NCBI GenBank assembly: GCA_964491435.1
Contig: CAZBGE010000002.1
Span: 5,256-69,255, forward strand
Source of the DNA: an uncultured Smithella sp.
Lineage (GTDB): Bacteria; Desulfobacterota; Syntrophia; Syntrophales; Smithellaceae
Reading direction: 5' to 3'
Length of the DNA stretch: 64,000 nt
Shown here: one piece after another, positions 13,704 through 63,882 of the stretch
How the letters are laid out: every line of letters starts with the position of its first letter
How positions within the stretch are numbered: position 1 is the stretch's first letter
Program-made: the position numbers and the translations under genes
Notes under the pieces: model-generated
What the model saw: only the letters and a program-made list of their open reading frames with translations
Databases searched by the model: none
What the model was told of the DNA's origin: nothing

Positions 13704-13755
13704 CGTGCCACAAATAAAATGGCGCATTATCCATAACAAGGAGAGAAGTAAAAAA

Positions 13756-14487: not shown

Positions 14488-14490
14488 GGA

Positions 14491-15669: not shown

Positions 15670-15709
15670 TGATACATAAGAACATCCGGAAAGAGCACAG
15701 GTTTTTACC

Positions 15710-15738
15710 TTGACATATCATCTTAAAATTTTTAAAAT
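15710..15738 (+). promoter_or_regulatory. Sigma70-like promoter upstream of the cyclophilin gene
   Basis: TTGACA (15710..15715), 17-nt spacer, TAAAAT (15733..15738). RBS AAGGAGA precedes ATG 15769. Confidence 0.55.
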
Positions 15739-15768
15739 TTCAGTCAGGTATTCTATAAGGAGACGATC

Positions 15769-30095: not shown

Positions 30096-30224
30096 ATGAA
30101 TCAAAAAAACATTTTAAGTAGACATAACATTTATTATAGGACGTAATAAAAAATGGCCGGAACGGAAAAGGGAGGAAAATCATGATTTAAGTCATGGACG
30201 TAAAGTGGACATTGAAATGAAATT

Positions 30225-31190: not shown

Positions 31191-31227
31191 TATTCCTTTT
31201 CTATTATAATATCATGATGGCAGTAAT

Positions 31228-33593: not shown

Positions 33594-33614
33594 ATGCTTA
33601 TGCCTCCGAATTCA

Positions 33615-34295
33615 TCAACTCAGCAAAGATATTTTTCTTTTGATAAAAATGGTTGCTGAAGGTTCCTTAGTATTCTCCAAAGCCTTTTTATAATACTCCA
33701 ATGCTTTACCCTTATTATTCAATTCCTCATGGGCGCGAGCGATATTGCGTAATCCAATCATTTCGAAACCGACGTGATAAACGTTTTGCGCTTTTTCAAA
33801 ATATTTCAGAGCGACTTTAAAATCTTTTTTGACTTCATAGGCATAGCCAACAGAGGTCAAAGCCATGAATTTAACACCTGTTTTATCAGAACCGGTCTTG
33901 CTGGCAAATTTTTCATAAGCGTTGATCGCCTTGTCCATTTCGCCTTGCTGGTAATAAATATTGCCTAAATGATAATAAGCCATCCGGCCGCTCCAACTGT
34001 GCGAATATTTATCAATCAGTTCTTGAAATATTTTAATGTTTTCAGCAGAGTTTTCTTTGTTGTCGCCGCTCTTGAGTATATTCCCCTGAGCTCTAGCGTA
34101 TAATTTTAAGGCGGAACTTGTGTATTGATTCCAGTATAAGTAAATCCCCATGGCGATAAGGAAAGCGCAGACTAAAGCCGCTCCAATCACAGTAACGCGA
34201 GTTTTATTTTCAGCAACATAATCACCTAATTTTTCGAATGTCGTTTGAAACGCATCTGGACTTTTGAGTTCTTTTTTAGATAACTTTGCGGCCAT
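33615..34295 (-). CDS. Membrane-anchored TPR-repeat protein
   Basis: 226 aa with one N-terminal TM helix ('VTVIGAALVCAFLIAMGIYLYW'), followed by TPR-like repeats ('AYYHLGNIYYQQGEMDKAINAYEKF'). Confidence 0.65.
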   Translation of the reverse strand: MAAKLSKKELKSPDAFQTTFEKLGDYVAENKTRVTVIGAALVCAFLIAMGIYLYWNQYTSSALKLYARAQGNILKSGDNKENSAENIKIFQELIDKYSHSWSGRMAYYHLGNIYYQQGEMDKAINAYEKFASKTGSDKTGVKFMALTSVGYAYEVKKDFKVALKYFEKAQNVYHVGFEMIGLRNIARAHEELNNKGKALEYYKKALENTKEPSATIFIKRKISLLS

Positions 34296-48365: not shown

Positions 48366-49663
48366 AACATGACTTTACCATTGCTAATCTTGGTGACTGC
48401 CAAATCGGTTCTCCTCTGAATATCAGCAGTTTTATTTCAGATCATGACCGGATTTTATTTCAAAACAGTCTTGCCAGTTATGAAGAATTTCTGGATGCTT
48501 CGGGAAAGCCTCTGTCCGTGGAACAGGCCGGCCCCCGGAAAAGGATTTTCTTTGATCCTTCCCGGACAACAGCGGCTATTGTTACTTGCGGCGGGCTCTG
48601 TCCGGGCATTAATGATGTCATCCGTTCGGTAACCATGACGCTTTTTTACCGTTACGGAGTCAAAAATATTCTTGGTATCCAATATGGATTGCGTGGGTTG
48701 AATCCTTCGTACGGCAGCAAACCCATACAGTTAACACCTGATTTTGTAAAAGATATCACTTACATCGGCGGCAGCATCCTTTCATCATCCCGGGGGCCAC
48801 AGGATCCGGCGATTATGGTGGATTATCTGGAGAGCAGGAAAATCAACATTCTTTTCTGTGTCGGCGGCGATGGAACCATGCGCGCCGCGGAAAAACTGAC
48901 GGCGGAAATCACCGCCAGAAATGCAAAGATCGCCGTCATCGGCATTCCCAAAACGATTGATAACGATCTCAACCTGATTGAAAAATCCTTCGGATTTGAC
49001 ACTGCCATTGCCAAAACCGTGGAAGCCGTCCGTAGCGCGCACGTGGAAGCCAAAGGCGCCTATAATGGCATCGGTCTGGTGAAAATAATGGGACGTTTAT
49101 CCGGCTACATCACGGCCACGGCGGCTCTGGCTCAGGGAGACGCGAACTTTGTGCTGATTCCCGAAGCGCCTTTTGATTTGTATGGAGAAAACGGATTCCT
49201 GAAATCCCTCCAGAAAAGAATAAAGGATAGCGGGCATGCCGTGATTCTCGTCGCGGAAGGCGCAGGACAGGAGCTGATGAGACAGGAATCAGATGAGCAA
49301 AAAACCGATCCATCAGGCAATATCCGTCTGCACGACATCGGTCTTTTTCTGAAAAACGCTATTGAAAATCATTTCCGGGAGAATCATCAGGAAATCAATC
49401 TGAAATATATAGAACCCAGCTATATGATCCGTTCCGTTCCGGCCAACGCCTCGGACAGCATTTACTGCAGCTCGCTGGGGCAATACTCCGTCCATGCGGC
49501 GATGGCGGGCAAAACCGGCCTTCTTGTCGCCCTGCGCAAGGAAGAATATGTCCATCTTCCCTTGTCTGCAGCTATTTCCGGCAGACGGATCGATCCCCGG
49601 GGGAATGTCTGGCTTCGGGTGCTGGAAACCACTGGTCAACCGGCAGAAATGAGAAACGGATAA
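48362..49663 (+). CDS. pfk: 6-phosphofructokinase (long PfkA-family enzyme)
   Basis: 433 aa with motifs 'TCGGLCPGINDVIR', 'GGSILSSSRG', 'VGGDGTMR', 'IGIPKTIDNDL', 'FGFDTA'. Its start overlaps the upstream stop (ATGA). Confidence 0.9.
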   Translation: MKHDFTIANLGDCQIGSPLNISSFISDHDRILFQNSLASYEEFLDASGKPLSVEQAGPRKRIFFDPSRTTAAIVTCGGLCPGINDVIRSVTMTLFYRYGVKNILGIQYGLRGLNPSYGSKPIQLTPDFVKDITYIGGSILSSSRGPQDPAIMVDYLESRKINILFCVGGDGTMRAAEKLTAEITARNAKIAVIGIPKTIDNDLNLIEKSFGFDTAIAKTVEAVRSAHVEAKGAYNGIGLVKIMGRLSGYITATAALAQGDANFVLIPEAPFDLYGENGFLKSLQKRIKDSGHAVILVAEGAGQELMRQESDEQKTDPSGNIRLHDIGLFLKNAIENHFRENHQEINLKYIEPSYMIRSVPANASDSIYCSSLGQYSVHAAMAGKTGLLVALRKEEYVHLPLSAAISGRRIDPRGNVWLRVLETTGQPAEMRNG

Positions 49664-49799
49664 TCATTGTCCTCAAGAAGAAATCCTTTTTTAAAAGAAT
49701 TGATGCAAATTGGTTTTAAGTCCGACGACCAATTGACTTTTAAAAACAGTTAAAGTAGAGAGTTTAAAATTTATATTCTTTATACGCAGGATACATGTA

Positions 49800-51527
49800 A
49801 TGAGAAAGATATTTTTGTTGATTTTGATTCCTGCCATTCTTGCGGCAATGGCATTCTCATCAGGGGCGGCCTCCGTAAAAGAAGACACTGCTCAACTGAC
49901 TTTCAGCAAGACAGCCATCCCTAAAACACCCGCTCACGCTTATACAATTCAGAAAGATGACGTTCTTTCCGCAATTGTACGCCAAATACCCGGCGTTACC
50001 GAAAAGAAGATCCCGCATTATTATAGAATGATCCAGGAAATGAATCCCAATATTAAAGATTTAAACAAATTATATGCAGGACATAAGATCATGTTACCCG
50101 GTAAAGTTACCGTCGTGGCAAAGGATAAAATGGCAACCCCGGATAACGCTGCAAATCATCAAACATCGAAAATAGTTAGCTCCCAGATCTATCAGGTTAA
50201 AAAAGGCGACAATCTCATTCGCATTGCACACCGCGTGCTTCACATAAAATCCAACACACAAAAAACAATCCTTCTGATTCAATCATTGAATCCGGCGATT
50301 AAAAACGCCAACAGGATCTACATCGGGCAGGTTCTGCATCTGCCTGATCATCAAATGACCGCGAAACCGGGAGAACAAACGACAAAGGATGAAAATGTCA
50401 CGGGAGAATCAGAGCAGGTTATTTCCCGCAAGGAGGATTCCCCGGAGCAGCAGGCCAAAGAACCTGTTATTTTACCTCCCGAGGCGCGCCTTGACGTTAT
50501 CAAGCATGTCATCACGCAAATGAACGGAACCATGCTCACCAGCGGCAAGTACTATCTGCCTGTCTCCAAAACGGCCGGACAAATTACCATTGACTGTTCC
50601 CTCATTCCCGTAGTGGAAATGGATGATCGGACAACCTTATTTCTTGATTTTGATAATCGTTCCGGAAGCGATCTGAAGAAAATCATCAGCGAGCACATGA
50701 ACAATTACCATCTGGTGAAAATTGACGCCAAAGACAACGTTATTGCCGCATTGAGCAAAATATTAAAAAATACTAAAAACTATGAGATTACGAAAGCGCA
50801 AAACCCGGTCGCTGTTGGTTCAACTCCCTCTTTGGAAATGATCATGGACTGGCTGATCACAAAAAAAGGCTCAAAATCGTCTTCAGCGAAGACGCAGGGT
50901 TTGCGATTCGTTTATGAAAACAGCACCTTGTTGCCCCGGGCCATTGTAAATTATGCACGCCGGAATTCCTTCATCATCACGGAGATTTCTCCGGAAAAAG
51001 GACTCGTCGGCAAACCGGAAGAAATTTATTCTCTCCCTCCAGCCACGATTTTATCTACGGCATCCACCAGAGATTTCTCCCGGGACCTGCTTTCTTACCT
51101 GAACATCCCGGCTGAACAAGACATTGATGTGGCAGTCTTTAACATCGACAAGGATGGATTTAATCTATCGATAAAAGCCGACATTGTTGTGAAAAGAGGA
51201 GAAAAGAAAACGATTATTTTCTCGCGTCATCTGCCCCCGCAATTCGTCAATATTCTGGAAAAGGCCGGCAATGAACTTATTTTCATATCCGATCAGGATG
51301 AACCACTCAAAAAAATGGAAAAAATTCTGAATGGTTTTCATATTGCCTTTGCTCCCGGATATTTTACCTTTTCCGGACTGGAAAAAAATCATCCGCCTTA
51401 TTCTTTCGGTTTTAATGGCGCAAAAATCAAAACGGATAAGATTACTTACGTCGTAAATTTTGATTTTAATCAGGAGTTGCAGGGATTAATGCAGGAAGCG
51501 TGGTCGGCAAACATTATCCGGTATTGA
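49800..51527 (+). CDS. Secreted protein with two LysM domains and a ~350-aa C-terminal region of unknown function
   Basis: Signal peptide 'LLILIPAILAAMAFSSGAAS'. LysM-like 'YTIQKDDVLSAIVRQ...GHKIMLP' and 'YQVKKGDNLIRIAHR...GQVLHLP'. Confidence 0.65.
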   Translation: MRKIFLLILIPAILAAMAFSSGAASVKEDTAQLTFSKTAIPKTPAHAYTIQKDDVLSAIVRQIPGVTEKKIPHYYRMIQEMNPNIKDLNKLYAGHKIMLPGKVTVVAKDKMATPDNAANHQTSKIVSSQIYQVKKGDNLIRIAHRVLHIKSNTQKTILLIQSLNPAIKNANRIYIGQVLHLPDHQMTAKPGEQTTKDENVTGESEQVISRKEDSPEQQAKEPVILPPEARLDVIKHVITQMNGTMLTSGKYYLPVSKTAGQITIDCSLIPVVEMDDRTTLFLDFDNRSGSDLKKIISEHMNNYHLVKIDAKDNVIAALSKILKNTKNYEITKAQNPVAVGSTPSLEMIMDWLITKKGSKSSSAKTQGLRFVYENSTLLPRAIVNYARRNSFIITEISPEKGLVGKPEEIYSLPPATILSTASTRDFSRDLLSYLNIPAEQDIDVAVFNIDKDGFNLSIKADIVVKRGEKKTIIFSRHLPPQFVNILEKAGNELIFISDQDEPLKKMEKILNGFHIAFAPGYFTFSGLEKNHPPYSFGFNGAKIKTDKITYVVNFDFNQELQGLMQEAWSANIIRY

Positions 51528-51604
51528 GTTTTGTTTTGAACATTCATCCAAGCAAACGTATGTCTTTCCGCAGCGCTGTTCTCCCTCCAGAGGATTTTTG
51601 AATT

Positions 51605-52576
51605 ATGGTAAAAGCAATCGCCCTTCTGTCCGGCGGTCTGGACAGCATTTTAGCCGTCAAGCTGGCGCAGCATCAAAACATAGACGTTACGGGGCTGGCC
51701 TTTACGACTCCTTTCTTCAGCGCGGCAAAAGCGCAGGCGGCAGCCAACCAGATCAACTTGCCTCTGATCATTGAAGACATTACAGATGAACATTTGCGGA
51801 TGCTCAAATCGCCGCGGTACGGCTACGGCAAAAACATGAACCCCTGCATTGACTGCCATACACTGATGTTGAAAATTGCCGGCGGAAAAATGGCGGCAAG
51901 AGGCGCTGATTTCCTGATCACCGGTGAAGTTCTTGGCCAGCGTCCCATGTCGCAGACCAAACAGTCTCTTTATGTGGTTGCGAAAAATTCCGGATACGCC
52001 GACTATATTTTACGTCCGCTTTCCGCGCACTTGCTTGATCCCACCAAGGCCGAACGCGAAGGAAAAATCGACCGCGCCCGGCTCCTGTCTATTTCCGGAC
52101 GAGGACGCAAAGAACAAATGCGTCTGGCTGAAGAATTTGGAATCCGCGTATACCCCCCTCCCGCCGGAGGCTGTCTGCTGACGGATCCGATTTTCTCCGT
52201 CCGGTTGCGGGATCTGATGTCTCATGCCGAAGACAGGCAAATCCGCGATTATGAGCTGCTAAAGTATGGACGGCATTTTCGTGCGGAAGATTTCGGTAAA
52301 ATTATTGTCGGCAGAAACAAATCCGACAATGAAGCGCTGAGCAAGCTGGCCACGGACGACGATCTGGTTTGCAATGTGGCTGATTTTCCGGGACCTTGCG
52401 TCTTCGTCCCTTATGGCAATCCATCGGCAATGGCGACAGCCGCCGCGCTGTGCGTCCGCTACTCCGATGCTCCCGCCGGTATGGAAGCCAGTGTCGTCTG
52501 CCGGCATAAAAACAAAGCCTTTGCCCTTCAAGCCAGGGCTATTTCCAGGGAAGATTGCGAACGCTGGATTATTTGA
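51605..52576 (+). CDS. PP-loop ATP pyrophosphatase (ThiI/MnmA-like tRNA sulfurtransferase family)
   Basis: PP-loop 'ALLSGGLDS' at the N-terminus, 'NPCIDCH' and 'ITGEVLGQRPMSQ'. The exact subfamily is not resolved. Confidence 0.6.
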   Translation: MVKAIALLSGGLDSILAVKLAQHQNIDVTGLAFTTPFFSAAKAQAAANQINLPLIIEDITDEHLRMLKSPRYGYGKNMNPCIDCHTLMLKIAGGKMAARGADFLITGEVLGQRPMSQTKQSLYVVAKNSGYADYILRPLSAHLLDPTKAEREGKIDRARLLSISGRGRKEQMRLAEEFGIRVYPPPAGGCLLTDPIFSVRLRDLMSHAEDRQIRDYELLKYGRHFRAEDFGKIIVGRNKSDNEALSKLATDDDLVCNVADFPGPCVFVPYGNPSAMATAAALCVRYSDAPAGMEASVVCRHKNKAFALQARAISREDCERWII

Positions 52577-54104
52577 TGGGTCCGCCGCCTTTGTGTTGCG
52601 GTCTCAAGAGATCGTAAACTGTTTTGACCGGATTGAAAACCGCAACCGGAAGTTCCACAAAGACCGTGTTCCAATAAGCCATGCCGCCGTTCCAGAGGCC
52701 GGGCATCTCCTGGACCTTGAGGCGGCGTCCCTTTTCCGTTTTGAGACTGATTAAATAAGCATCCTTGTTGACGTAATTGGCCAAAGCAAATTTCTTTCCA
52801 AGATAATTCCTGGTGCAGCATACCATGTCGACCGGATTAAAATAAGAAGCCCGCGACCAGATTTCCTTCTGTAAAGCCCGACGATGATTGACATGAGCTG
52901 ATTCCACGATCTGCAATGTTTGCGATTTGTCTTTTTCCTGAACCCAGAAAGGACCGCCGCCCGGTTCGCCTTCATTTTTGACCATCCCGCAAATACGCAG
53001 CGGGCGGTTCAATTGTAAAAACAACTGTCTTTTTTTCCCGGCTGGTTTCAACCGTGAAAATCCACCGGAAAAACTCACTTGAAGCTCAGAGCGGCAAAAG
53101 TCAGTCATGACTTCAAAATCCCCGGAATTGAGTTGATTGCTTGCCAGACATCGTAACATTTCAAAAATGGACTGACGCAATTTCAGCGCCAGGCCACCCA
53201 GCATTTTTTGGTAAGGCAGTATTTTCTTTTGCAGTATATCAGGCGCAATATTATCGATATTTTTAACAAAAATAAGATCGGCATATAATGATTGAAAATT
53301 TTCCAGCAAAGCTCCGTGTCCGCCGGGACGGAAAACCAGGCGGCCTTCGTCGTCCCGAAAAGGCAGATTCCTTTCATCGACGGCCACGATATTTGTCGCC
53401 GGAGACTGTACGGATAAATCAATTCGAAATTTAACACCGTAATAATTTTCATATTTTGGAACAATTGCGCTGAGCAAATCCTTGATGATTTTATAATGGT
53501 CTGCTGAAACCGTAAAGTGCAGGCGGCAAAACTCTCCGTGATTACCGTTCAGGAGGTTTGCGGCTTCCCCAATATGTTCTTCCAGGGCCGTCCGGACATC
53601 ATTGTTCCGGTAGACGTGGAACGGAATCAGCGCCTTGGGCAGACTGCCAAAATGAAGGCCGGAAGTAAGAATATAATCCAGGACAGCCTGAATATCCTTT
53701 TTCTTGATCATCAAACGAACTGCTTCTTGTTCCTCAAGAATCGGGGAAAAAGGCATTTTTTTCAAATCAGCCCAAAATGCCCTGTCCAGCCCGGCATTGC
53801 CGAAACCTCCCCGCTGAGCTGCGGCAAACCACGAGGCAAACATGCGGCTGGCCGCGCCCGAGGCCGGCACAAATTTTAATATCCGGCATTGAGCGGCTTT
53901 GTCATTATACAGTTTAATCAGCTGATTACGTTCGAAAGTGGTAAAAGATCGAATCCCGTCGCCCGGACGGCAAGGGCGAATGAGCTTCAGAAAAGACGGC
54001 TCACGCTGGTAGGTTTCCAGTTGCTTATTCACCTCCGGCGGCGTCAACCCCAGCGATTTGATCTGGGCAATATCTATTTTTGAAAAAGAATGTTTTTCCA
54101 CCAT
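52569..54104 (-). CDS. Conserved hypothetical protein, DUF4301-like (nucleotidyltransferase-like fold suspected)
   Basis: 511 aa. N-terminus 'FSKIDIAQIKSLGLTPPEVNKQLETYQ...FLKLIRP' and 'KFVPASGAASRMF' resemble DUF4301 / UDP-sugar pyrophosphorylase-like proteins (recalled). There is an 8-nt convergent overlap with the PP-loop gene. Confidence 0.5.
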   Translation of the reverse strand: MVEKHSFSKIDIAQIKSLGLTPPEVNKQLETYQREPSFLKLIRPCRPGDGIRSFTTFERNQLIKLYNDKAAQCRILKFVPASGAASRMFASWFAAAQRGGFGNAGLDRAFWADLKKMPFSPILEEQEAVRLMIKKKDIQAVLDYILTSGLHFGSLPKALIPFHVYRNNDVRTALEEHIGEAANLLNGNHGEFCRLHFTVSADHYKIIKDLLSAIVPKYENYYGVKFRIDLSVQSPATNIVAVDERNLPFRDDEGRLVFRPGGHGALLENFQSLYADLIFVKNIDNIAPDILQKKILPYQKMLGGLALKLRQSIFEMLRCLASNQLNSGDFEVMTDFCRSELQVSFSGGFSRLKPAGKKRQLFLQLNRPLRICGMVKNEGEPGGGPFWVQEKDKSQTLQIVESAHVNHRRALQKEIWSRASYFNPVDMVCCTRNYLGKKFALANYVNKDAYLISLKTEKGRRLKVQEMPGLWNGGMAYWNTVFVELPVAVFNPVKTVYDLLRPQHKGGGPIK

Positions 54105-54126
54105 CCACTATCCGCCATCCACTATC
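54101..54126. repeat. Tandem copies (14-nt period) of CCATCCACTATC(C), overlapping the start codon of the divergent DUF4301-like gene
   Basis: CCATCCACTATCC at 54101..54113 and CCATCCACTATC at 54115..54126. Two TATCAACTA copies follow at 54123..54131 and 54134..54142. Confidence 0.8.
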
Positions 54127-54217
54127 AACTAAATATCAACTATCCCTCGCTTTGACAAGCCTAAAATAATAGCGGGCAGTGATACAGCTCCATGCTGAAA
54201 AAACCATGGATTGTGTC

Positions 54218-54277: not shown

Positions 54278-55402
54278 ATGAAAAGCAGACTTGTTTTCCG
54301 ATGGATTTTAATCCCCGTTTTTTTAATAACTTTCGCCGCCGCCACAAGCTTTGGCGCTGAAAACATAAAAATCGGCGTTGCCGGGGCTCACACGGGAGAC
54401 TTGGCTTCTTACGGCCTGCCCACGGTCCGGGCAGTCGAGATGATCGTCAAAAAAATAAATGCTCAAGGAGGGATTTCTGGCAGAAAATTGCAGCTTTTGA
54501 TTCAAGATGAAGCCTGCAAGCCAGAACTGGCGACCAATGCCGCCACAAAACTGGTTTCCGCCAAAGCGGACGCCATCATCGGTCACATTTGCAGCGGCGC
54601 GACCAAAGCGGCCTTGCGCACTTATAAAGATGCGAACATCATCGTCGTTTCACCTTCCGCAACCAGCCCGGAACTGACTATTTCCGGACGGTATCCGAAC
54701 TTCCACCGCACCATCGCTCCCGATGACGCACAGGCCAGGCTGGTGGTGGATTTTGCCATTCAAAAGCTAAAACTGAAAAATTTTGCCGTCATCCACGACA
54801 AAGGCGATTATGGCAAAGGCTTTGCAGAATACGCGAAAAAATTCCTTGAACAATCTCGAGTCGCAAAAATTGTTCTTTACGAAGGCATTACCCCCGGCGC
54901 CGTGGATTATTCCGCCATTGTTCAGAAAATCAGGTATTCCGGCGCGGACGCGGTTATTTACGGCGGTTACCACCCGGAAGCGGCATCCGTTATTCAACTC
55001 ATGCGCAGAAGAGGAATGAAGACCGTTTTTATTTCCGACGACGGGGTTAAAGATCAAACCTTCATCAAAGTGGCCGCCAGTTCCGCCGAAGGCGTTTACG
55101 CCTCCGGACCCAAGGACACAGCGAAAAACCCGTTGGCCATCGCCGCAATTGAGGAGCATAAAAGAACCTACGGCACAGAACCGGGAGCTTTCTATCTAAA
55201 CGCTTACAGCGCGATGCTGGCGGTTGTCAATGCGCTGTCCAAGGCAAAATCCACCGATTACAAGGCTGTGCACAAGGCTCTGCGCACCTATCCGGCAGAC
55301 ACGCCGCTGGGAAAAATAAAATTTAACGATAAAGGCGACGCCATCGGCGTCGGTTTTTCCATGTATCAGGTGCGCAAGGGCGCATACGTGGAACTGAAAT
55401 AG
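54278..55402 (+). CDS. livK: Branched-chain amino acid ABC transporter substrate-binding protein
   Basis: Signal peptide 'WILIPVFLITFAAATSFGAE'. LivJ/K-type 'IKIGVAGAHTGDLASYG' and 'GHICSGAT'. The internal ATG was chosen over the 5'-extended ORF. Confidence 0.85.
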   Translation: MKSRLVFRWILIPVFLITFAAATSFGAENIKIGVAGAHTGDLASYGLPTVRAVEMIVKKINAQGGISGRKLQLLIQDEACKPELATNAATKLVSAKADAIIGHICSGATKAALRTYKDANIIVVSPSATSPELTISGRYPNFHRTIAPDDAQARLVVDFAIQKLKLKNFAVIHDKGDYGKGFAEYAKKFLEQSRVAKIVLYEGITPGAVDYSAIVQKIRYSGADAVIYGGYHPEAASVIQLMRRRGMKTVFISDDGVKDQTFIKVAASSAEGVYASGPKDTAKNPLAIAAIEEHKRTYGTEPGAFYLNAYSAMLAVVNALSKAKSTDYKAVHKALRTYPADTPLGKIKFNDKGDAIGVGFSMYQVRKGAYVELK

Positions 55403-55418
55403 GCGCGTAGTGCACGGT

Positions 55419-55431
55419 GGATAGTGGATGG
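55419..55431. repeat. Inverted copy (GGATAGTGGATGG) of the 13-nt motif found upstream of livK
   Basis: Exact reverse complement of 54101..54113. It lies 16 nt after the livK stop, in the livK-livH spacer. Confidence 0.8.
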
Positions 55432-55490
55432 CATCACCATAAACCATCGAAACATTTGTTCATACCCGTGCTTGGACGAAACAGAAGACC

Positions 55491-56393
55491 ATGAATTATT
55501 TCTGGGACTTATTCTTGGGAGGACTGACTCGCGGCAGTATTTACGCCCTGATCGCCCTGGGCTACACGATGGTTTACGGCATCTTGCAGCTGATCAACTT
55601 CGCCCACGGCGAAATATACATGATCGGGGCTTTCACCGCGCTCATCGTGGCGTCCGTGCTGACGATGAAAGGTATGACCGGTTTATCCGTGCTGATAGTC
55701 GCCGGCGTCGTCGCGGTGCTCTACTCGGCCGCCTACGGCTTTACCGTGGAAAAAATCGCCTATAAACCGCTGCGTCAGGCATCGCGCCTGTCCCCGCTCA
55801 TCAGCGCCATCGGTATGTCCATCTTTTTGCAAAATTACGTCATGCTGGCCCAGACTTCCGATTTCCTCCCCTTCCCCAGCCTGCTTCCGCAGTCTGATTT
55901 GCTGGACAGTATCAGCCACATCATCGGTCCTTCCGACTTCATCATTATTCTGACCTCCGCAGTCGTCATGATCGCCCTTTCCCTTCTTCTGAAATTTACC
56001 AAAATGGGCAAAGCCATGCGGGCGACGGCCCAGGATCAGCAAATGGCGCTGCTGACCGGCGTAAATATCAACCGCGTCATCTCCATAACCTTTATCATCG
56101 GATCGTCACTGGCAGCCTTGGGCGGCATTCTGATCGCCTCCCATGTCGGACGAATCAATTTTTACATCGGCTTTAACGCGGGCATCAAGGCCTTTACAGC
56201 CGCGGTGCTGGGCGGTATCGGCAGCATTCCCGGCGCCATGCTGGGCGCCCTGGCGCTGGGCATGGCGGAAAGCTTCGGGACGGGCTACATTTCCAGCGAT
56301 TATGAATCCGTCTTCGCCTTTGCCTTTCTTATTCTGATTTTAATTTTCAAACCGGACGGCATTCTGGGACGGTCATCCCAGCAAAAAGTGTAA
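55491..56393 (+). CDS. livH: Branched-chain amino acid ABC transporter permease LivH
   Basis: 300 aa, polytopic, with motifs 'GSIYALIALGYTMVYG', 'INFAHGE', 'GKAMRATAQD'. Confidence 0.9.
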   Translation: MNYFWDLFLGGLTRGSIYALIALGYTMVYGILQLINFAHGEIYMIGAFTALIVASVLTMKGMTGLSVLIVAGVVAVLYSAAYGFTVEKIAYKPLRQASRLSPLISAIGMSIFLQNYVMLAQTSDFLPFPSLLPQSDLLDSISHIIGPSDFIIILTSAVVMIALSLLLKFTKMGKAMRATAQDQQMALLTGVNINRVISITFIIGSSLAALGGILIASHVGRINFYIGFNAGIKAFTAAVLGGIGSIPGAMLGALALGMAESFGTGYISSDYESVFAFAFLILILIFKPDGILGRSSQQKV

Positions 56394-56406
56394 AAGTGTT
56401 TTCGAC

Positions 56407-57618
56407 ATGAAATTTGCGGAAGAAATTAAACGATCTATCTACATTGCCCTCTGGCTGATGCTGCTGACATTTCCCATTATCGTCATTAAAGTCAACACCA
56501 TCGACAATGTCATCCTTTGGCGCTGGGGCAACATTGCGGGCATCGGCCTGTCCGCCTTTTTTCTTTCATTTTTCTGGCAGCTTTATCTTCGCAAAAAAAG
56601 CCCGGAAAAAAGCGCGGCCGCGGAAAAGGAATCCTCTGTCCGCCTCCTGCTGGAAAACCCGAAAATCTATCGCCCCGCACTGCTCATCATCGCCTCTTTC
56701 GCGCTGGTTTTTCCCTTTGTCGCATCTCATTATCAAATCAACGTCATGACCACCGCTCTTATTTACGTGATGCTGGGACTGGGCCTGAACATCGAGGTTG
56801 GCCTGGCCGGACTTCTGGATTTGGGTTATGTCGCCTTTTACGCCGTGGGCGCATACAGCTATGCTCTTTTAAATTATCATTTTGGCTTGGGCTTTTGGGT
56901 GCTCCTGCCGGCGGGCGCTCTTCTGGCCGCTTTTTTCGGCATTCTGGTGGGATTGCCTGTTTTAAGATTGAGCGGAGATTATCTGGCAATTGTGACACTG
57001 GCCTTTGCCGAGATTCTTCGGCTGGTGCTGGAAAACTGGAATGACTTCTCCTTTGGCCCCAGCGGCATCTCCAACATTCCGCGGCCGGGACTGTTCGGCA
57101 TCCCTCTGACGCCAGAACAATCGGCGGTTTATCTGTATTTTATTCTGATTGCTCTATGCCTGCTGACGATTTTTGTCATTTACCGTCTGCAGCATTCCCG
57201 CATCGGCCGCGCCTGGGTGGCCATGCGCGAAGATGAGCTGGCCTGTCAGGCTATGGGCATTGACAAAACAAAAGCCAAACTTGCCGCCTTCGCCCTGGGC
57301 GCAACCTGGGCGGGGATGGCGGGCGTTCTTTTCGCCGCAAAAACAACATTCATCAACCCGGCAAGTTTTACCTTTCTGGAATCGGCCATGATCCTGGCGA
57401 TTGTTGTTCTGGGGGGTATGGGCTCCATTTTAGGCGTCATTACGGCGGCCCTGGCCATCATTTTACTTCCGGAATATCTGCGCGTTTTCAGCGACTACCG
57501 GATGATTCTTTTTGGCGCGGCGCTGATTCTGGTCATGATTTTCCGGCCGGGCGGACTAATGGCCGAAAAGCGCAGGCAATATCAATTTCAGCAAGCAGAC
57601 ATTGAAGAAAAAACCTGA
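56407..57618 (+). CDS. livM: Branched-chain amino acid ABC transporter permease LivM
   Basis: 403 aa, polytopic, with motifs 'GLNIEVGLAGLLDLGYVAFYAVGAY' and 'GRAWVAMREDE'. Confidence 0.9.
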   Translation: MKFAEEIKRSIYIALWLMLLTFPIIVIKVNTIDNVILWRWGNIAGIGLSAFFLSFFWQLYLRKKSPEKSAAAEKESSVRLLLENPKIYRPALLIIASFALVFPFVASHYQINVMTTALIYVMLGLGLNIEVGLAGLLDLGYVAFYAVGAYSYALLNYHFGLGFWVLLPAGALLAAFFGILVGLPVLRLSGDYLAIVTLAFAEILRLVLENWNDFSFGPSGISNIPRPGLFGIPLTPEQSAVYLYFILIALCLLTIFVIYRLQHSRIGRAWVAMREDELACQAMGIDKTKAKLAAFALGATWAGMAGVLFAAKTTFINPASFTFLESAMILAIVVLGGMGSILGVITAALAIILLPEYLRVFSDYRMILFGAALILVMIFRPGGLMAEKRRQYQFQQADIEEKT

Positions 57619-57632
57619 AGGATAATCGGATC

Positions 57633-58436
57633 ATGGAAAACATTCTGGATGTCAGCGAACTCTCCATGGATTTCGGGGGTCTTCGGGCCCTGGAGAAAGT
57701 CGATCTATACATCCGTCAGGGAGAAATTGCGGCGCTGATCGGTCCCAACGGCGCGGGAAAAACCACATTGTTTAACTGTCTGACCGGAATCTACAAACCG
57801 ACGGCGGGCAAAATCATTCTGTATCCGCCTAAAAGCAAACCCAGAAAACTCAACGGATTAAAAATCAACACCATCGCAAAGCTGGGCATGGCCCGCACCT
57901 TCCAGAACATCCGTCTTTTCGGTGGCATGACCGTTTTGGAAAATGTGATGGTGGGACGCCACTGCCGGTCCGGAGCGGGACTTCTGGGCGCCATTTTTCG
58001 TCCACCCGCCACACGAAACGAAGAAAAAGAAATCGTCCGGAAAAGTTATGGCATTCTTGAATATATGGGACTGGCCGGACAGGTCAACGAACTTTCGCGA
58101 AATCTGCCCTACGGCGCACAGCGCCGTCTGGAAATCGCACGCGCCCTGGCCACCGAGCCGGTTTTGCTGCTTCTGGACGAACCGGCCGCGGGAATGAATC
58201 CGCAGGAAACCAACGAATTGGACAGCCTGATTTCCCAGCTTCAAAAAGATTTTCAACTATCCATTCTGCTGATCGAACACGATATGAAACTGGTCATGAA
58301 TCTGGCGCAAAACATCTTCGTGCTGGACTATGGCAAAGAAATCGCCCGGGGAACACCTCAGGAAGTCCGGGAAAATCCAGCCGTCATCAAAGCCTATCTG
58401 GGAGAGGAAGAAGGGCCCGATGCTGAAATTAGTTGA
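57633..58436 (+). CDS. livG: Branched-chain amino acid ABC transporter ATP-binding protein LivG
   Basis: Walker A 'GPNGAGKTT', signature-like 'LPYGAQRRLEIARAL', Walker B '[10 protein letters not shown]', and 'LIEHDM'. Confidence 0.9.
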   Translation: MENILDVSELSMDFGGLRALEKVDLYIRQGEIAALIGPNGAGKTTLFNCLTGIYKPTAGKIILYPPKSKPRKLNGLKINTIAKLGMARTFQNIRLFGGMTVLENVMVGRHCRSGAGLLGAIFRPPATRNEEKEIVRKSYGILEYMGLAGQVNELSRNLPYGAQRRLEIARALATEPVLLLLDEPAAGMNPQETNELDSLISQLQKDFQLSILLIEHDMKLVMNLAQNIFVLDYGKEIARGTPQEVRENPAVIKAYLGEEEGPDAEIS

Positions 58437-59127
58437 TGTTGAAACCCGCTACGGCGGAATCCGCGCTCTGAAAGGCATCTCTCTTTCGGTCACTCCGGGA
58501 GAAATCGTGGCTCTCATCGGGTCCAACGGAGCAGGAAAATCCACCACGCTCATGTCCATCTCAGGTATCACACCCGTTCACAGCGGACAGATCCTTTTTA
58601 ACAACAGCCAGATTGAAAAAACCAATCCCGACAAAATCGTTGCTCTGGGAATTTCTCAAGTTCCCGAAGGCAGGCACATTTTTCCTAAACTGAGTGTGCT
58701 GGAAAATCTGGAAATGGGCACCTTCCTGCGTAACGATCATGCGGATATCAAAAAGGATTTTGCCTACATCTATGAGCTTTTCCCCATCCTGCATGATCGG
58801 CGGCATCAGCAGGGCGGAACCCTGAGCGGCGGCGAGCAGCAAATGCTGGCCATTTCCCGCGCACTGATGGCGCGTCCTAAATTACTCTTGCTGGATGAGC
58901 CTTCGCTGGGACTTTCACCTTTAATGACCAAACTGATTTTTTCCATCCTGACCCGAATCAACGCCGAACACGGCACCACCATCTTTCTTGTGGAGCAAAA
59001 CGCCTTCATGGCGCTGAAACTCTCCCACCGCGCCTACGTGCTGGAAAACGGCAGCATCACCATGGAAGGAAAAGCTTCCGACCTGCTGCACAACGAAGAC
59101 ATCAAAAAAGCCTATCTGGGGATTTGA
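58161..59127 (+). repeat. Copy A of a diverged ~0.97-kb direct repeat (3' third of livG plus all of livF)
   Basis: Aligns colinearly, at a constant offset of 4603 nt, with 62764..63730. Similarity ends at the livF stop codon on the right. Confidence 0.85.
58420..59127 (+). CDS. livF: Branched-chain amino acid ABC transporter ATP-binding protein LivF
   Basis: Walker A 'GSNGAGKST', signature 'LSGGEQQML', Walker B '[11 protein letters not shown]'. ATG 58420 overlaps the livG end by 17 nt. Confidence 0.9.
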   Translation: MLKLVDVETRYGGIRALKGISLSVTPGEIVALIGSNGAGKSTTLMSISGITPVHSGQILFNNSQIEKTNPDKIVALGISQVPEGRHIFPKLSVLENLEMGTFLRNDHADIKKDFAYIYELFPILHDRRHQQGGTLSGGEQQMLAISRALMARPKLLLLDEPSLGLSPLMTKLIFSILTRINAEHGTTIFLVEQNAFMALKLSHRAYVLENGSITMEGKASDLLHNEDIKKAYLGI

Positions 59128-59235
59128 AAAGAATATCACCAAACTTTGATTTGCTTAAAAATCGGCCTACCTAATTCCTTACAGGGTCATAGGATACCCC
59201 TAATGACGAACTTAAAATATGCAGTCGCTGCCGCT

Positions 59236-60507
59236 TCAATATAGCAGTTGCGGTTCTGTCTTTCCAAAAAGAATCGTTGCCGGGGATGGTATGGCAATCC
59301 CCTTGTTTTCATCACGGCCCTGGAGGATATACCTCGGATTTTCATCGACAGATTCATTCACAGCCTGTCTGCAAAGAATTCCGATATCGCCGCCTTTCAC
59401 CCGGTTCCAAATCAACGTTAGTTTCATATTGGGAAATGCTGTGAACATTTCATAATCGCCGTCGCTGTCACCGGATGAGAAGACAGGATCCCAGTTTTTA
59501 CCGAGTCCTGTCTTAATCGCCATGTTAATCGCTTCAACTTTTCCCCCACGGTATGTCTTGACCCACCCTGCCTTATATTCGGGAAGAAGCCTTCCGTCAG
59601 CCGCTGACGCAATCTCCATCCCGATTACATTTTCGGCGGGAATATTGTACCCGAAACGGTTGATACCTGAAAATACCTCCACGATCGGTTTATAACTTGC
59701 CGTAACAATGTAAACATCAAAACCACTGTCTGTAAAGGCAGCCATCAGATTCTGCATTTCCGGAATGATACGCAACCCGGTTTTGAATGAATAACTTACC
59801 ACTCCGGCTTTTGATGGTAATGTATCCGGCGACTGCCATGTTTGTTTGCTTAATGGATTACCCAGCTCGTAAGAAATAGCTTCCGCAGCCATCTTCTTTA
59901 TTTCGTCCTTCGTATGACCCGTAAACAGGTATATCACCCAAGGATAACCGTAATCAGCCCCAATGCCGGCTGTTGAACAATACCCATCGTATAAAAAAGC
60001 AACTTTTGTCACAAAATCCCAATATTGAGGCTTGTTCTGCACCTCTGCAAACGACAACGTCCCGTTGGCTCCCAAATAATGATCGAACAAATAATTGTAA
60101 TCGTTTTCCAGGTCGGCGTTGATATCGGCTAATGGAATATTTTTGTATTCTGCGGACAATTGCGTAATGCCGTTGATATTGTCCCGGAGCAATCCTTTGA
60201 ATTGTTCCCTGGTCAATTTAAACTTCAGATGAAGCAACTGATAACGCATTGTAGCCTCTTCCACATCGAGATAAGCACAGGTCTGATCCCAATCCAGAAC
60301 AATGTATGGTGGTTTGTTCTCTTCACGGAACTTACCGCCGATGCCATAATCATCAATCAACCGCATCAACACCCTGTAGTTTTTTTCAGACCAGTTGGCT
60401 TTTTCCAGAGAGACGGGAGTGCATGCCCCGTTATTACTGCAACCGGAAATCGTCAACAGGAATACGATCAGCAGCAATGATGAAAGAAAAAATCTTTTAA
60501 TCTTCAT
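59236..60507 (-). CDS. HAD-superfamily hydrolase lipoprotein (phosphatase-like) with a large cap insertion
   Basis: Lipobox 'LLTISGCSNN'. HAD motif I 'VLDWDQT', motif II 'YIVTAS', motif III Lys in 'GGKVEAI', motif IV 'SGDSDGDYEM'. It starts 44 nt downstream of the RloB-like gene on the same strand. Confidence 0.65.
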   Translation of the reverse strand: MKIKRFFLSSLLLIVFLLTISGCSNNGACTPVSLEKANWSEKNYRVLMRLIDDYGIGGKFREENKPPYIVLDWDQTCAYLDVEEATMRYQLLHLKFKLTREQFKGLLRDNINGITQLSAEYKNIPLADINADLENDYNYLFDHYLGANGTLSFAEVQNKPQYWDFVTKVAFLYDGYCSTAGIGADYGYPWVIYLFTGHTKDEIKKMAAEAISYELGNPLSKQTWQSPDTLPSKAGVVSYSFKTGLRIIPEMQNLMAAFTDSGFDVYIVTASYKPIVEVFSGINRFGYNIPAENVIGMEIASAADGRLLPEYKAGWVKTYRGGKVEAINMAIKTGLGKNWDPVFSSGDSDGDYEMFTAFPNMKLTLIWNRVKGGDIGILCRQAVNESVDENPRYILQGRDENKGIAIPSPATILFGKTEPQLLY

Positions 60508-60551
60508 GATCCGTCAATAACCTTTCTGCCTTCCAGAGCGCATTTGAATCG

Positions 60552-61154
60552 TTAATGCTTTGATTTCCTTATGAGTCGTTCTACCAGTCGATAAAATGTT
60601 GTTCCTGTTGTTCTCGGCCAATCCTTGCATGGTGGATTATCACGTCCTTTAGCTCGCCGGACAGCGTCAGCGATCCTATCGGGGGTTATTTTGTGCGCAT
60701 CAATACTTTTGTCATAATCAGGAAGATAACGAACCAAACGCTCGGAGCATTGGCGCGAAGTTGCAATACCGCTGCCATCCTCAAAATGCAACAACAGCCA
60801 ATATTCGAATTTTGGATTACTTAATGCGAAGCCATAATTATCTTGTTCCTGAGACCATGCATGAAGCTTAGTCAGCTGCTCATCCGTCCATTGGTCTTTA
60901 TCTACGACCAGCCAAGCTTCATCAAAATTTCTTAGTTTCGTTTCTCTCAAGTGTTTTTTCATGCGTTGCAGCACATGAATCGGCGAACTTTCATTTTTAC
61001 CTTTCAGGCAATCAACATGAATCACCAATTCAAAATCATTAAAGATAGAAAAATACTGCGGTTCCGTTGCAACGCCTGCAACCGCGATAACAAACAGTCT
61101 TCGATAACGTCGTTCGCCAATTTGCCTCTGAAATTTCCTTCTTTTAGGCGGCAT
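60552..61154 (-). CDS. RloB-like (Toprim-related) protein, partner of the upstream ATPase
   Basis: 200 aa. 'FVIAVAGVATEPQYF' aligns to the RloB 'ilivCEGekTEpnYF' pattern. 'WLVVDKDQW' is DxD-like. 'LSNPKFEYWLLLHF' is also present. The start codon shares one nucleotide with the ATPase stop (TAATG). Confidence 0.75.
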   Translation of the reverse strand: MPPKRRKFQRQIGERRYRRLFVIAVAGVATEPQYFSIFNDFELVIHVDCLKGKNESSPIHVLQRMKKHLRETKLRNFDEAWLVVDKDQWTDEQLTKLHAWSQEQDNYGFALSNPKFEYWLLLHFEDGSGIATSRQCSERLVRYLPDYDKSIDAHKITPDRIADAVRRAKGRDNPPCKDWPRTTGTTFYRLVERLIRKSKH

Positions 61155-62503
61155 TATTTGTTTTCCTCATCATTTTCCGCCGCCCCGCAGGAACTTGCCA
61201 TTGTCCCTCTAAGCAATATGCGAGGAATGCCGCCTAAACGACCCTGCAGATAGCTTTTCCGAATATCCTTATCATAACGGACATCTTTGTATTCGCTGAA
61301 AGATATCATCTTCGATGCCCCAGACGAGTCTCTCTCCGCAACCCACATTTCGTCGCGACGAAGCAACTGCTGGTCCATCAGCAGAACATCATGCGTTGTC
61401 AACAGAAGCTGCGACCTTGATTCATGTGAACAGTTGGAAAGATATGAATCCAGTAGTTGACGAGTCAGCAAGGTATGCAGGCTGCGGTCAAGTTCATCAA
61501 TGACATAGACCTTTTTTGAATTTTTAGCTGAAAGTTCCAAAAACGCCGGTAGAAGATCAATGACTCGTTGTGAACCATCAGATTCTTGTCGAATATCGAA
61601 TTTTGCTTCAGAACCATCCGCTTTCGAGTGAAAAGCAACCAGTTTTTTTGCAACTAAATCCCCTTTTTTGCGAGTAAAAACAACACGCTCGTTGATGGGT
61701 TCTGTCATCATTCGCATGGTCATGCCATCTTTTATATCTTCTTGAATTTTATTTCTCAAAGGTTCTGGTATCTGTATGTTCTCAAAAGGAATCGGTTCAC
61801 CACCAAGATGAGCAATTCCTGTATCTAATTGGTGTAACATCTCATTCATTGTTATATAACGTGGATGATCTTCATCAAGAAACTGTTCAAATGGTTCAAA
61901 TCGTGAATCTGGTGCAACAAGTTCGAGAGTATCGTTAAACCAATCGTAAATAGGTTTAAAGATTTCAACTTTTTGCGAAACGGAATTTGTAAGAAAAAGC
62001 TGGTTTTCCCTGGTACCCTTAAAGGCAAATTCCAAAAATTGATCTTTAGAAAACGATTTATCAAAAATTATCTTCTCATCCTTACGATCATAAAGTGTTA
62101 TTTCACTCGTGGGTGTAATCTTCACCAGCTTTTCTTCCAGAATCGCTTTGCGAGTGACAGCAAAACTAAATTCATAAATGGTCTCATCGATAAGCAACTC
62201 AAAAATGAAACGCGATGGTAACTCGACACTTTTGGTATCCAGACGAAACGGTTCGACAGGAATCAGACTTCCGGGTCTGCTACCTTTGACAACTAATGCT
62301 TTGGCAAAATTAATTGCATTAAAAAAATTTGTTTTCCCTGACGCATTTCCGCCATAAAGCACGGCAATAGGAAGGATTCTTGTCTGGTACTTCGCCAATT
62401 TCGGTACACGTTCACTATGCTGACGCTCTTTGCTGGCTGTCATCATGAAAGTCACCTTTTCGCGAAACGACATCCAATTTTCTATCGAAAGTGATATAAT
62501 CAT
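61154..62503 (-). CDS. ABC/SMC-like AAA_21-type ATPase (RloA/AbiLi/OLD-N-terminal-like)
   Basis: 449 aa. N-terminus '[10 protein letters not shown]', Walker A '[10 protein letters not shown]', Walker B '[12 protein letters not shown]', and 'LLLTTHD'. RBS GAGGTG precedes ATG 62503. Confidence 0.8.
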
Positions 62504-62548
62504 AACACACCTCTGTGAATAATGAGAAATAATCTCTTTATGTAGGAT

Positions 62549-62577
62549 AATTTACATCTATTTATACAATAATGCAA
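62549..62577 (-). promoter_or_regulatory. Possible promoter of the ATPase/RloB operon in an AT-rich spacer
   Basis: On the minus strand: TTGCAT (62577..62572), 17-nt spacer, TAAATT (62554..62549). Confidence 0.3.
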
Positions 62578-62640
62578 GAATTAATGTGAAAATATCTCTC
62601 AATTATCTTTTGATCTGAAAAGTTAGCAATAATAGGTTTT

Positions 62641-62772
62641 TCAGCCAACTGCCTGTTCGACGATGGCGTCGGCTAAATGGATTTGGGTGGTCTGGGCTTC
62701 CCGCAATCGGGCCTTTAATTTGTCGCACAGGGCCATTAGTTCATCGACTTTGGCAACGATCCGGTGCTGCTG
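62641..62772 (-). pseudogene. hsdS: C-terminal stub of a type I restriction-modification specificity subunit (hsdS remnant)
   Basis: The minus-strand translation is '[43 protein letters not shown]'. This matches the conserved HsdS C-terminal helix ('(E)[16 protein letters not shown].LEA'). There is no upstream remainder; the frame runs into antisense livG'. Confidence 0.7.
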
Positions 62773-63039
62773 CTTCTTGACGAACCGGCGGCGGGAATGA
62801 ACCCGCAGGAAACCAACGAGCTGGACAGCCTGATTTCACAACTGCAAAAGGATTTTAACCTTTCCATCCTGCTCATCGAACACGACATGAAACTGGTCAT
62901 GAATCTGGCGCAAAACATCTTTGTGCTGGACTACGGAGAAGAGATCGCGCGGGGAACACCGCAGGAAATCCGCAACAACCCGGCTGTCATTAAAGCCTAT
63001 CTGGGTGAGGAAGAAGGAGACGATGCTGAGATTAGCTGA
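62764..63039 (+). pseudogene. livG: 5'-truncated livG paralogue (C-terminal ~91 codons only)
   Basis: It begins at Walker B '[10 protein letters not shown]'. Walker A, the Q-loop and the signature motif are absent. By my count there are 5 aa differences in 90 versus LivG 58164..58436. Confidence 0.85.
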
Positions 63040-63730
63040 TGTTGAAACCCGCTACGGCGGCATCCGCGCCCTGAAAGGCATCTCTCTTTCAGTGACGCCG
63101 GGAGAAATCGTGGCCCTTATCGGGTCCAACGGTGCGGGAAAATCCACCACGCTCATGTCCGTCTCGGGCATCACGCCGGTTCATAGCGGACAAATCTTTT
63201 TTAACGGCAGTCCGATTGAAAAAACGGAGCCGGATAAAATCGTTGCCATGGGGATTTGCCAGGTTCCCGAAGGCAGGCATATCTTCCCGAAACTGAGCGT
63301 GCTGGAGAATCTGGAAATGGGCGCATTCCTGCGCAACGACCATGCGGAAATCAAAAACGATTTTGAATACGTTTACGGTCTTTTTCCTATCTTGCAGGAA
63401 CGGCGGCATCAGCAGGGCGGAACCCTGAGCGGCGGCGAGCAGCAGATGCTGGCCATTTCCCGCGCACTGATGGCCCGGCCCAAATTACTGCTGCTGGACG
63501 AACCTTCGCTGGGCCTTTCGCCATTAATGACCAAACTGATTTTTTCCACACTGGCCAAAATCAACGCCGAACACGGCACAACCATCTTTCTGGTGGAACA
63601 AAACGCCTTCATGGCGCTGAAACTGTCCCACCGCGCCTACGTTCTGGAAAACGGCAGCATCACTATGGAAGGAAAAGCCCGGGACCTGCTGCACAACGAG
63701 GATATCAAAAAAGCCTATCTGGGGATTTGA
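63023..63730 (+). CDS. livF: Second, full-length LivF paralogue (ABC ATP-binding protein) with no partner genes
   Basis: 235 aa with all motifs intact ('GSNGAGKST', 'LSGGEQQML', '[11 protein letters not shown]'). By manual alignment there are about 21 aa differences versus LivF at 58420..59127. Confidence 0.85.
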
Positions 63731-63882
63731 ACCGGAATTTAAACGCATCATCATAAACATCCCGTAAGCCAACTTTACACTTGACTTTTACTGTCTAATC
63801 GGCCATTTTTCAGCTGCAAGTAATTCCTCATGTGTGGGCTTCCGGATGGTTGCTCGTAAATAGCACATGGGGTTTTGCATTT

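Follow-up and report, generated by a model that had tools for sequence, protein, structure and literature searches.

A predicted AbiL defence cassette between two diverged livG–livF copies in an uncultured Smithella, probably placed by homology-facilitated illegitimate recombination

AbiL, an anti-phage system that pairs an ABC ATPase with a TOPRIM nuclease, has been grouped with PARIS (PMC11464382). Homology-facilitated illegitimate recombination (HFIR) has been documented experimentally in Acinetobacter, S. pneumoniae, P. stutzeri and E. coli conjugation (PMC3240628; originals cited in PMC5361080), and "sequential displacement", with orphan 3′ ends as its residue, is the mechanism proposed for the effector–immunity arrays of type VI secretion systems (Vibrio cholerae) and for Rhs and contact-dependent inhibition loci (PMC5361080). 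Here we describe a locus in a 64,000-nucleotide stretch of DNA from an uncultured Smithella sp. (GenBank assembly GCA_964491435.1, contig CAZBGE010000002.1, positions 5,256 to 69,255; hereafter the window), in which a predicted AbiL gene pair lies within 3.6 kb enclosed by two diverged copies of the livG 3′ end and livF, with all features between the copies on the minus strand. The region is the proximal part of a defence hotspot that sits right after livF in a clade of Smithellaceae, and the variability of this hotspot is seen directly in related strains. On balance, we favour a history in which HFIR displaced the resident livG 3′ end and livF, leaving an AbiL hotspot locus whose flanking liv alleles were later overwritten.

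Several features of the described systems recur in this locus. As in HFIR, one side is anchored in homologous liv DNA and the other appears to be joined at microhomology without a recombinase, with foreign cargo trapped between them. The case differs in being read from natural sequence variation, not from an experiment, and in that the join would fall inside the homologous gene, so that a 978-bp resident stub is kept as a direct repeat. The likeness to sequential displacement is that modules enter beside a conserved upstream anchor while resident 3′ ends are pushed downstream as orphans, that the copies come from different strains and not from duplication, and that the arrays are then moved by homologous recombination. 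In contrast to those arrays, the cargo here is phage defence and the stub is a housekeeping transporter gene; unlike retained immunity genes, the displaced livF has no evident selective value and is disrupted in some strains. The locus is a clear but ordinary case of defence-island turnover, a known kind of process. It leaves current concepts unchanged, extending HFIR, sequential displacement and the defence hotspot to another host and another anchor gene, and it offers a base-level, multi-sample picture of how, in an uncultured lineage of digester syntrophs, a defence locus is put together and rearranged with no help from mobility genes.

The locus begins at the end of a complete livKHMGF operon, a gene order also found in L015, L095, L097 and L186 (L and P numbers denote the contigs, loci and lineages that were compared). 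Strains with other alleles at the locus are referred to as haplotype 2 (L002, L004/L012 and L013) and haplotype 3 (L188–L190), the latter conspecific with the window. The features are as follows.

54278-59127, plus strand: complete livKHMGF operon, from open reading frames (ORFs), Pfam and gene calls in identical contigs
54278-55402, plus strand: livK
55491-56393, plus strand: livH
56407-57618, plus strand: livM
57633-58436, plus strand: livG
58420-59127, plus strand: livF1
57700-59100, plus strand: livG–livF1 tract that differs by about 10% between near-clonal strains, an allelic replacement zone
58151-59128, plus strand: repeat copy 1, the final 94 codons of livG and livF1, within the functional operon
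59143-59171, minus strand: remnant of an RloB/AbiLii 3′ end, 28 nt, 16 nt past the livF1 stop
59236-60507, minus strand: HAD-like (HAD-IB-like) lipoprotein gene, 423 aa
60552-61154, minus strand: AbiLii, RloB/TOPRIM-like, 200 aa, predicted nuclease effector
61154-62503, minus strand: AbiLi, AAA_21 ABC-type ATPase, 449 aa, predicted sensor/regulator
62504-62640, minus strand: AT-rich spacer of 24.8% GC, from the hsdS stop to the AbiLi start
62641-62769, minus strand: hsdS stub, the final 42 codons and stop of a type I specificity gene
62752-62769: putative illegitimate hsdS′/livG′ junction with the 18-nt tract GGCAACGATCCGGTGCTG
62754-63731, plus strand: repeat copy 2, displaced livG′ and livF2, from ORFs, local alignment and Pfam
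62755-63039, plus strand: livG′, without the 5′ half
63023-63730, plus strand: livF2, intact

Local alignment of 58151-59128 with 62754-63731 gives an ungapped direct repeat of 978 bp at 87.3% identity, with 80-92% identity in all 100-bp windows. Homology starts abruptly and ends, on the 3′ side, one base past the livF stop codon. Copy 2 starts at livG codon 174, abutting the hsdS stub, and no livK, livH, livM or livG 5′ half of a second liv operon lies upstream of it. Each of the two junctions is found again, at 99-100% identity, in contigs that come from at least 11 samples, were built by several assemblers and are drawn from JGI, ENA, NCBI and Logan; some junction-spanning contigs are 30-72 kb long and cover both liv copies. 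Because the junctions recur in independent contigs, we take the structure to be real. The alignment, the ORFs and these contigs confirm the original prediction of an island of minus-strand genes between diverged livG-3′/livF copies, although its estimate of about 90% identity for the repeat was too high. Its statement that integrase, tRNA and terminal repeats are lacking was also borne out. Between 45 and 64 kb ARAGORN found no tRNA; Pfam, NCBIfam and PADLOC scans found no integrase domain in the island ORFs or the downstream genes and no tyrosine or serine recombinase in or beside the island. There are no att-like short near-perfect repeats, the sole flanking repeat being the 978-bp, 87% liv repeat, and searches for phage and plasmid similarity matched nothing meaningful.

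The right-hand joint lies in a short tract compatible with both genes. The tract GGCAACGATCCGGTGCTG reads as QHRIVA of hsdS on the minus strand and as (A)NDPVL of livG on the plus strand; 15-16 of its 18 positions agree with the livG of L095 and of copy 1 (GCCACCGAGCCGGTYYTG), and the CCGGT core agrees perfectly. Intact HsdS homologues, including those linked to AbiL, can be read across the truncation point. As the minus strand of the window reads like intact HsdS, the sequence is hsdS-derived up to 62769 and livG-type (CTGCTTCTTGACGAA) beyond it. By comparison with these homologues, the hsdS′/livG′ joint appears to be a microhomology join of the kind made in illegitimate recombination, with CCGGTGCTG as its shared tract and with an extent that is approximate. 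Haplotypes differ near the junction only at 62761 and 62767 (L002, L004 and L013). Both differences are synonymous in the hsdS frame (CAG CAC CGG versus CAA CAC CGC), and one of them changes P to A when read as livG. At the two positions haplotype 2 has the bases that L105 and L154 carry in their intact hsdS. This pattern suggests that the junction version in the window was partly converted towards livG sequence.

The two liv copies have separate lineage origins. In quartet bootstraps with 1000 replicates, the grouping (copy 1, L097)|(copy 2, L095) was recovered in 1000/1000, and the two copies paired with each other in 0/1000. The livGF of copy 1 groups with the L097/L098 lineage and that of copy 2 with the L095 lineage; the upstream flank joins the window to L095 in 999/1000 replicates, in agreement with the affinity of copy 2. 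The nearest sequences to copy 1 are haplotype 3 (90.8%) and L098 (89.7%), and the nearest to copy 2 is L186 (90.5%), compared with 87.3% between the copies. Differences between the copies are mainly synonymous, with a ratio of nonsynonymous to synonymous divergence (dN/dS) of 0.066 in the livG fragment and 0.11 in livF. Given these low ratios, and because a truncated livG cannot be functional, the differences must have arisen in functional genes. The copies are thus alleles of different lineages and not a duplicate decaying in place. With the quartets, the short hsdS/livG tract and the lack of site-specific machinery, the suggestion that the second copy is DNA of another lineage joined illegitimately is supported.

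The backbone upstream is itself a mosaic. The ThiI–DUF4301 flank (48400-54200) groups with L095 (999/1000), whereas livH–livM (55570-57640) groups with L097 (1000/1000), at a synonymous divergence (dS) of 0.3-0.4 versus about 1.0. The window-versus-L098 dS, 0.3-0.46 from livH to AbiLii between saturated flanks, had prompted us to consider the whole of livH through the island as a single L097/L098-like import. This reading was dropped, as the conspecific L188 is 99.8% identical to the window across livK–livH–livM and carries another livG–livF. Since L188 shares the L097-like livH–livM, that tract belongs to the species backbone; it may be an older introgression that possibly predates the island. 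Separately, 58020-58200 shows L095-like states within an otherwise L097-like livG (25 versus 9 informative sites) and covers the position equivalent to the hsdS′/livG′ junction. The L095-like states there look derived because the outgroup L015 agrees with L097 at several sites, and the segment is probably a short recombination patch.

Turnover of liv alleles is observed among near-clonal strains. L188 differs from the window at 21 of 9081 nt over 48.4-57.5 kb, livK, livH and livM included, compared with about 135 differences in the 57.7-59.1 kb tract alone. Copy 1 of haplotype 3 is a mosaic with copy-2-like segments, and haplotype 3 matches the window for 108 nt past livF, leaving it exactly at the stop of the HAD-like gene (59235/59236). 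The 31 nt that haplotype 3 carries beyond 59235 (L189 3456-3486, L190 3020-3050) have no match in the window or in 193 loci, and all three contigs end there. Haplotype 2 is identical to the window over 58996-62760. To the left of 58996 it equals L098 at 101/101 positions, with the switch inside a shared 26-mer, and from 62761 on it differs from the window by 2.8% through copy 2. An invariant island is therefore flanked by three copy-1 and two copy-2 alleles in near-clonal strains, the flanking alleles differing by 3-12%. Because such varied alleles surround an invariant island, both liv copies have evidently been overwritten by alleles of related lineages. The replacement tracts reach the limits of homology, as they should where the border of homology is the point at which incoming single strands are trimmed. 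It follows from this overwriting that 87% identity provides no date for the duplication. The earlier argument that a diverged repeat cannot be a fresh duplication is unsafe for the same reason, and the divergence of flanking repeats is unusable for dating insertions of this type.

Exchange between the two liv copies is plausible as well, given a longest identical run of 44 nt and the mosaic copy 1 of haplotype 3. Excision of the island through the repeat, which the original prediction had envisaged, is possible on these grounds; however, an island-free chimeric livF was found in no contig and not among the exact LivF1/LivF2 look-ups or cluster members. Copy 2 is interrupted in some strains. 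L002 (8667-8791) and L003 (1-125) leave the window at 63713, 18 bp before the livF2 stop, and encode a 254-aa LivF with a foreign C-terminus. Since its 3′ end is replaced from 63713 in these strains, livF2 is dispensable. In L002, the gene of an IS3-family transposase lies about 210 nt from the 63713 break. An IS3 insertion was considered as the cause of the break; no convincing terminal inverted repeats were seen, and we do not make this claim.

In the history that we favour, the AbiL cassette would formerly have stood downstream of the hsdS gene of a type I restriction-modification (R-M) system, of which 42 codons are left. The incoming DNA would have consisted of a complete livG–livF with its cargo, ending in hsdS. 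On one side it would have paired by homology with the liv operon, and on the other a short tract shared by its hsdS end and the resident livG would have been the site of an illegitimate join. The working operon would then have taken in the new livG–livF, and the 3′ half of the resident livG, with the resident livF, would have been pushed downstream as a stub, an insertion for which neither integrase nor att site would be needed. AbiLi would serve as sensor and AbiLii as nuclease effector, the pair probably being transcribed from the AT-rich spacer. Later, the liv copies, and not the island, would have been overwritten repeatedly by alleles of related lineages up to the exact limits of homology. 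We infer the order of these events, the direction of import and the route by which the DNA entered from the present arrangement, in which the left boundary lies in homologous livG–livF, the right joint lies at the microhomology of 62752-62769 (with parents judged from homologues), and the stub and the new copy are of different lineages, a difference to which later overwriting could have contributed. Earlier HFIR-type events are suggested by the stubs of RloB and hsdS; together with livG′–livF these form layers that record successive recombination events. Truncated housekeeping genes beside defence genes are, by this example, useful markers of illegitimate recombination.

Several points weigh against a founding event by HFIR as we describe it. 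Neither parental arrangement was found among the exact LivF1/LivF2 look-ups, the cluster members and the relatives of AbiLi and of the HAD-like protein, nor was there an island-free conspecific strain or a lineage in which livF, the HAD-like gene and AbiL are followed by an intact hsdS. The microhomology is judged from homologues, not from the true parents, and is weaker in haplotype 2 (GATGCGGTGTTG). The recombinant left end of haplotype 2 comes from contigs that end no more than about 100 nt from the switch. Given how readily the liv copies are overwritten, their present affinities need not reflect the founding event, and the L097-like livH–livM, common to the conspecific haplotype 3, is possibly an older and separate introgression. 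The centre of AbiLi is far more diverged from L098 (69-77%, dS 1.37) than AbiLii, and the anti-phage function is read from family membership.

Other routes lead to a similar arrangement. An in-place tandem duplication, made by an unequal, illegitimate hsdS–livG exchange between sister chromosomes and followed by overwriting of the liv copies and replacement of the second island, could use the same hsdS/livG microhomology. The overwriting to homology limits that we observe makes divergent copies compatible with originally identical ones, and the content of the hotspot is readily swapped. Such a duplication nevertheless predicts a second HAD–AbiL–hsdS set after livF2, where every contig shows other genes, namely PDC-M04, a PsyrA-like protein and type IIG R-M, or IS3 and UvrD; it takes at least three events compared with one for HFIR, no strain with near-identical copies was seen, and the pairing of copy 1 with copy 2 appeared in none of the 1000 quartets. 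We regard it as unlikely. A Campbell-type integration, in which a fragment from mid-livG to hsdS is circularised by an illegitimate join and enters by a single crossover in the resident livG–livF, gives the exact topology of cargo between direct repeats and a single illegitimate joint. Copy 1 is L095-like at its start (58151-58200) and then L097-like, as a crossover near 58200 would leave it. Copy 2, however, lacks the reciprocal pattern, being L095-like from its first informative sites, the L095-like patch begins about 130 nt upstream of the repeat, which a crossover does not explain, and there is no sign of a circular form. Crossover mapping is unreliable after overwriting, and the informative sites misfit a single crossover, so that this route seems decidedly improbable.

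Two further alternatives fare worse. Several liv-type ABC transporter loci are common in bacteria, and a deletion between hsdS and the livG of a second, paralogous operon would also leave a single illegitimate joint; paralogous liv loci were indeed one of the origins first proposed for the repeat. Copy 2, however, is 88-90% identical to the same-position livGF of L095/L186, and LivF2 has 91% protein identity to LivF1, which is the pattern of sister-lineage orthologues and not of paralogues. Both copies are orthologous to the livGF at this position in sister lineages, no second livKHM is present, and relatives have one liv operon at the locus with variable genes directly after it. A fusion of two operons is therefore very improbable. 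A misassembly of two co-occurring Smithellaceae strains through their shared liv sequence is the least credible of all. Related lineages do occur in the same samples and several short contigs break inside the repeats, yet the livF1/island and hsdS′/livG′ junctions are spanned at 99-100% in at least 11 samples by several assemblers, contigs of 30-72 kb included. HFIR followed by allele overwriting thus remains the reading we prefer. As a rather unlikely elaboration, the cassette may carry its own liv homology arms and be gained and lost among related Smithellaceae by RecA-dependent recombination alone, its flanks re-tailored to each host by conversion. If true, defence genes would be mobilised across species without a recombinase in an uncultured syntroph community.

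Pfam and PADLOC both recognise the predicted defence genes of the island. AbiLi matches Pfam AAA_21 (6.2e-44) and PADLOC AbiLi (6.3e-76 over residues 1-429), and its translation shows Walker A (GGNASGKT), Walker B (VYVIDELD) and a TTHD His-switch. AbiLii matches Pfam RloB (3.6e-35) and PADLOC AbiLii (4.7e-22), with the motifs TEPQYF and VVDKDQW in its translation. The two genes overlap by 1 nt at 61154. Both members that define the AbiL family, the AbiLi ATPase and a co-operonic RloB/TOPRIM partner, are thus present, and the pair is intact in nearly all of 80 metagenomic loci with AbiLi relatives. From this family membership, we infer that AbiLi–AbiLii is an anti-phage system. The co-oriented, overlapping ATPase and RloB/TOPRIM genes and the intact Walker A, Walker B and His-switch motifs are as in the group of PARIS, OLD and Gabija. 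The predicted system differs in its host, an uncultured syntrophic deltaproteobacterium-like organism, and in the centre of AbiLi, which is strongly diverged even from the nearest cassette. That cassette, in L098, stands directly after livF and is 80% identical to that of the window over 2 kb: AbiLii and the 3′ part of AbiLi reach 83-91%, the middle of AbiLi 69-77%. The dS between window and L098 is 0.45 for AbiLii, equal to the 0.46 of livF1, which would fit a history shared by copy 1 and the AbiL cassette with the L098 lineage. The AT-rich spacer at 62504-62640 is the probable AbiL promoter region; promoter-like hexamers occur on the minus strand at 62629-62602 and 62528-62499. In L013, which differs from the window at position 61598, AbiLi is called as two ORFs (345 and 74 aa). 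The defence gene could be inactivated in that population, or the split could be a sequencing error.

The hsdS stub ties the cassette to type I R-M systems with embedded "restriction-linked" genes of the rloA/rloB type. By tblastn it is 72% identical to annotated "restriction endonuclease subunit S" genes (E=9e-13), and its DNA is 77% identical to an hsdS 3′ end. As in such systems, genes for an AAA ATPase and RloB follow an hsdS 3′ end in the same orientation, at a distance of 138 bp. Intact hsdM–hsdS in the same layout is found in L115–L118, L127, L154 and L155, and ends 90-200 bp upstream of AbiLi in about 8 of the 80 AbiLi loci, L127, L154 and L155 having this hsdS-to-AbiLi spacing. Because the layout recurs in the surveyed loci, we read the stub as a leftover of "type I R-M plus AbiL". 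Unlike those systems, the window has 42 C-terminal hsdS codons in place of an intact hsdS with two target-recognition domains, and no homologue of HsdM or HsdR in its tail or in identical contigs; no R-M system is therefore present here.

The remainder of the island has other histories. The HAD-like lipoprotein matches Pfam HAD (E=1.8e-4) and TIGR01488 (E=5e-6), both under the cut-off. Outside its own cluster, identity to the nearest relatives is about 65%; all relatives whose source is named belong to Bacteroidota/Bacteroidales, a pattern indicative of acquisition across phyla. It is absent from the other 79 AbiL loci surveyed and is cargo unrelated to AbiL. The RloB remnant next to livF1 has 22/28 matches to the 3′ ends of the window AbiLii and of the L098 RloB, a score reached by only 2 of 500 shuffles, and it occupies the position of the intact RloB in L098. 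With the current AbiLii 3′ end (60558-60585) it forms a 79% direct repeat, and the HAD-like gene is therefore bracketed by two RloB ends, one old and one current. At least three modules of differing histories, along with several stubs, make up the island. The island lies within a larger hotspot that runs past the end of the window, and its description as a single foreign block has to be given up.

Relatives in the Smithellaceae keep LysM–ThiI–DUF4301–livKHMGF and vary in the genes right after livF. Among related lineages and strains, livF is succeeded by six different gene sets, mostly recognised defence modules by PADLOC.

Window type, after livF2: PDC-M04 A/B, PsyrA-like protein, DUF3800, type IIG restriction-methyltransferase
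L002: IS3-family transposase, UvrD-like helicase, DpdF/PsyrT-like giant helicase
L097: UvrD-like helicase, IetA/IetS, type III methyltransferase
L098: AbiL, UvrD-like helicase, DRT UG5 reverse transcriptase and nitrilase
P0001 lineage: HigB/Gp49–HTH pair, DUF499
L095 and L186: radical-SAM and glycosyltransferase genes

The variation reaches the level of strains, since L097 and L098 have identical LivF and differ in the genes downstream; the UvrD-like gene of haplotype 2 is 80% identical to the one after livF in L097/L098. In keeping with defence hotspots of fixed position, the ThiI–DUF4301–livKHMGF flank is conserved and AbiL, IetAS, DRT UG5, type IIG and type III R-M, PDC-M04 and toxin–antitoxin genes alternate after livF. 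The variants examined here contain no integrase-bearing element, and one IS3-family transposase (L002) only. The comparison of gene order that had been proposed for close relatives thus found a single liv operon followed by variable genes and no full second operon. The far boundary of the hotspot, or a distal conserved flank, was not reached in any contig. In L102, a window-type contig, positions 10981-16206 hold candidate PDC-M04 A/B (E about 1e-72), a DprA/PsyrA-like protein, two DUF3800 proteins and a type IIG restriction-methyltransferase. These genes past livF2 extend the defence island at least 5 kb beyond the window.

Base composition distinguishes only part of the island. Its GC content is 42.1%, compared with 51.8% for the liv operon and 46.3% for the whole window. 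The island is lower in GC, as had been claimed, but it reaches only the 5th percentile among 3.6-kb windows of the window, and much of the contrast arises because the liv genes are GC-rich. For GC at third codon positions (GC3), AbiLi and AbiLii are the only outliers (0.36, z about −1.9); at 0.48, the HAD-like gene has a value typical for the window. Elsewhere, several ORFs in 29376-34295 have GC3 values of 0.34-0.41 (z −1.3 to −2.2), equal to or below those of the AbiL genes, and that region may be another accessory segment.

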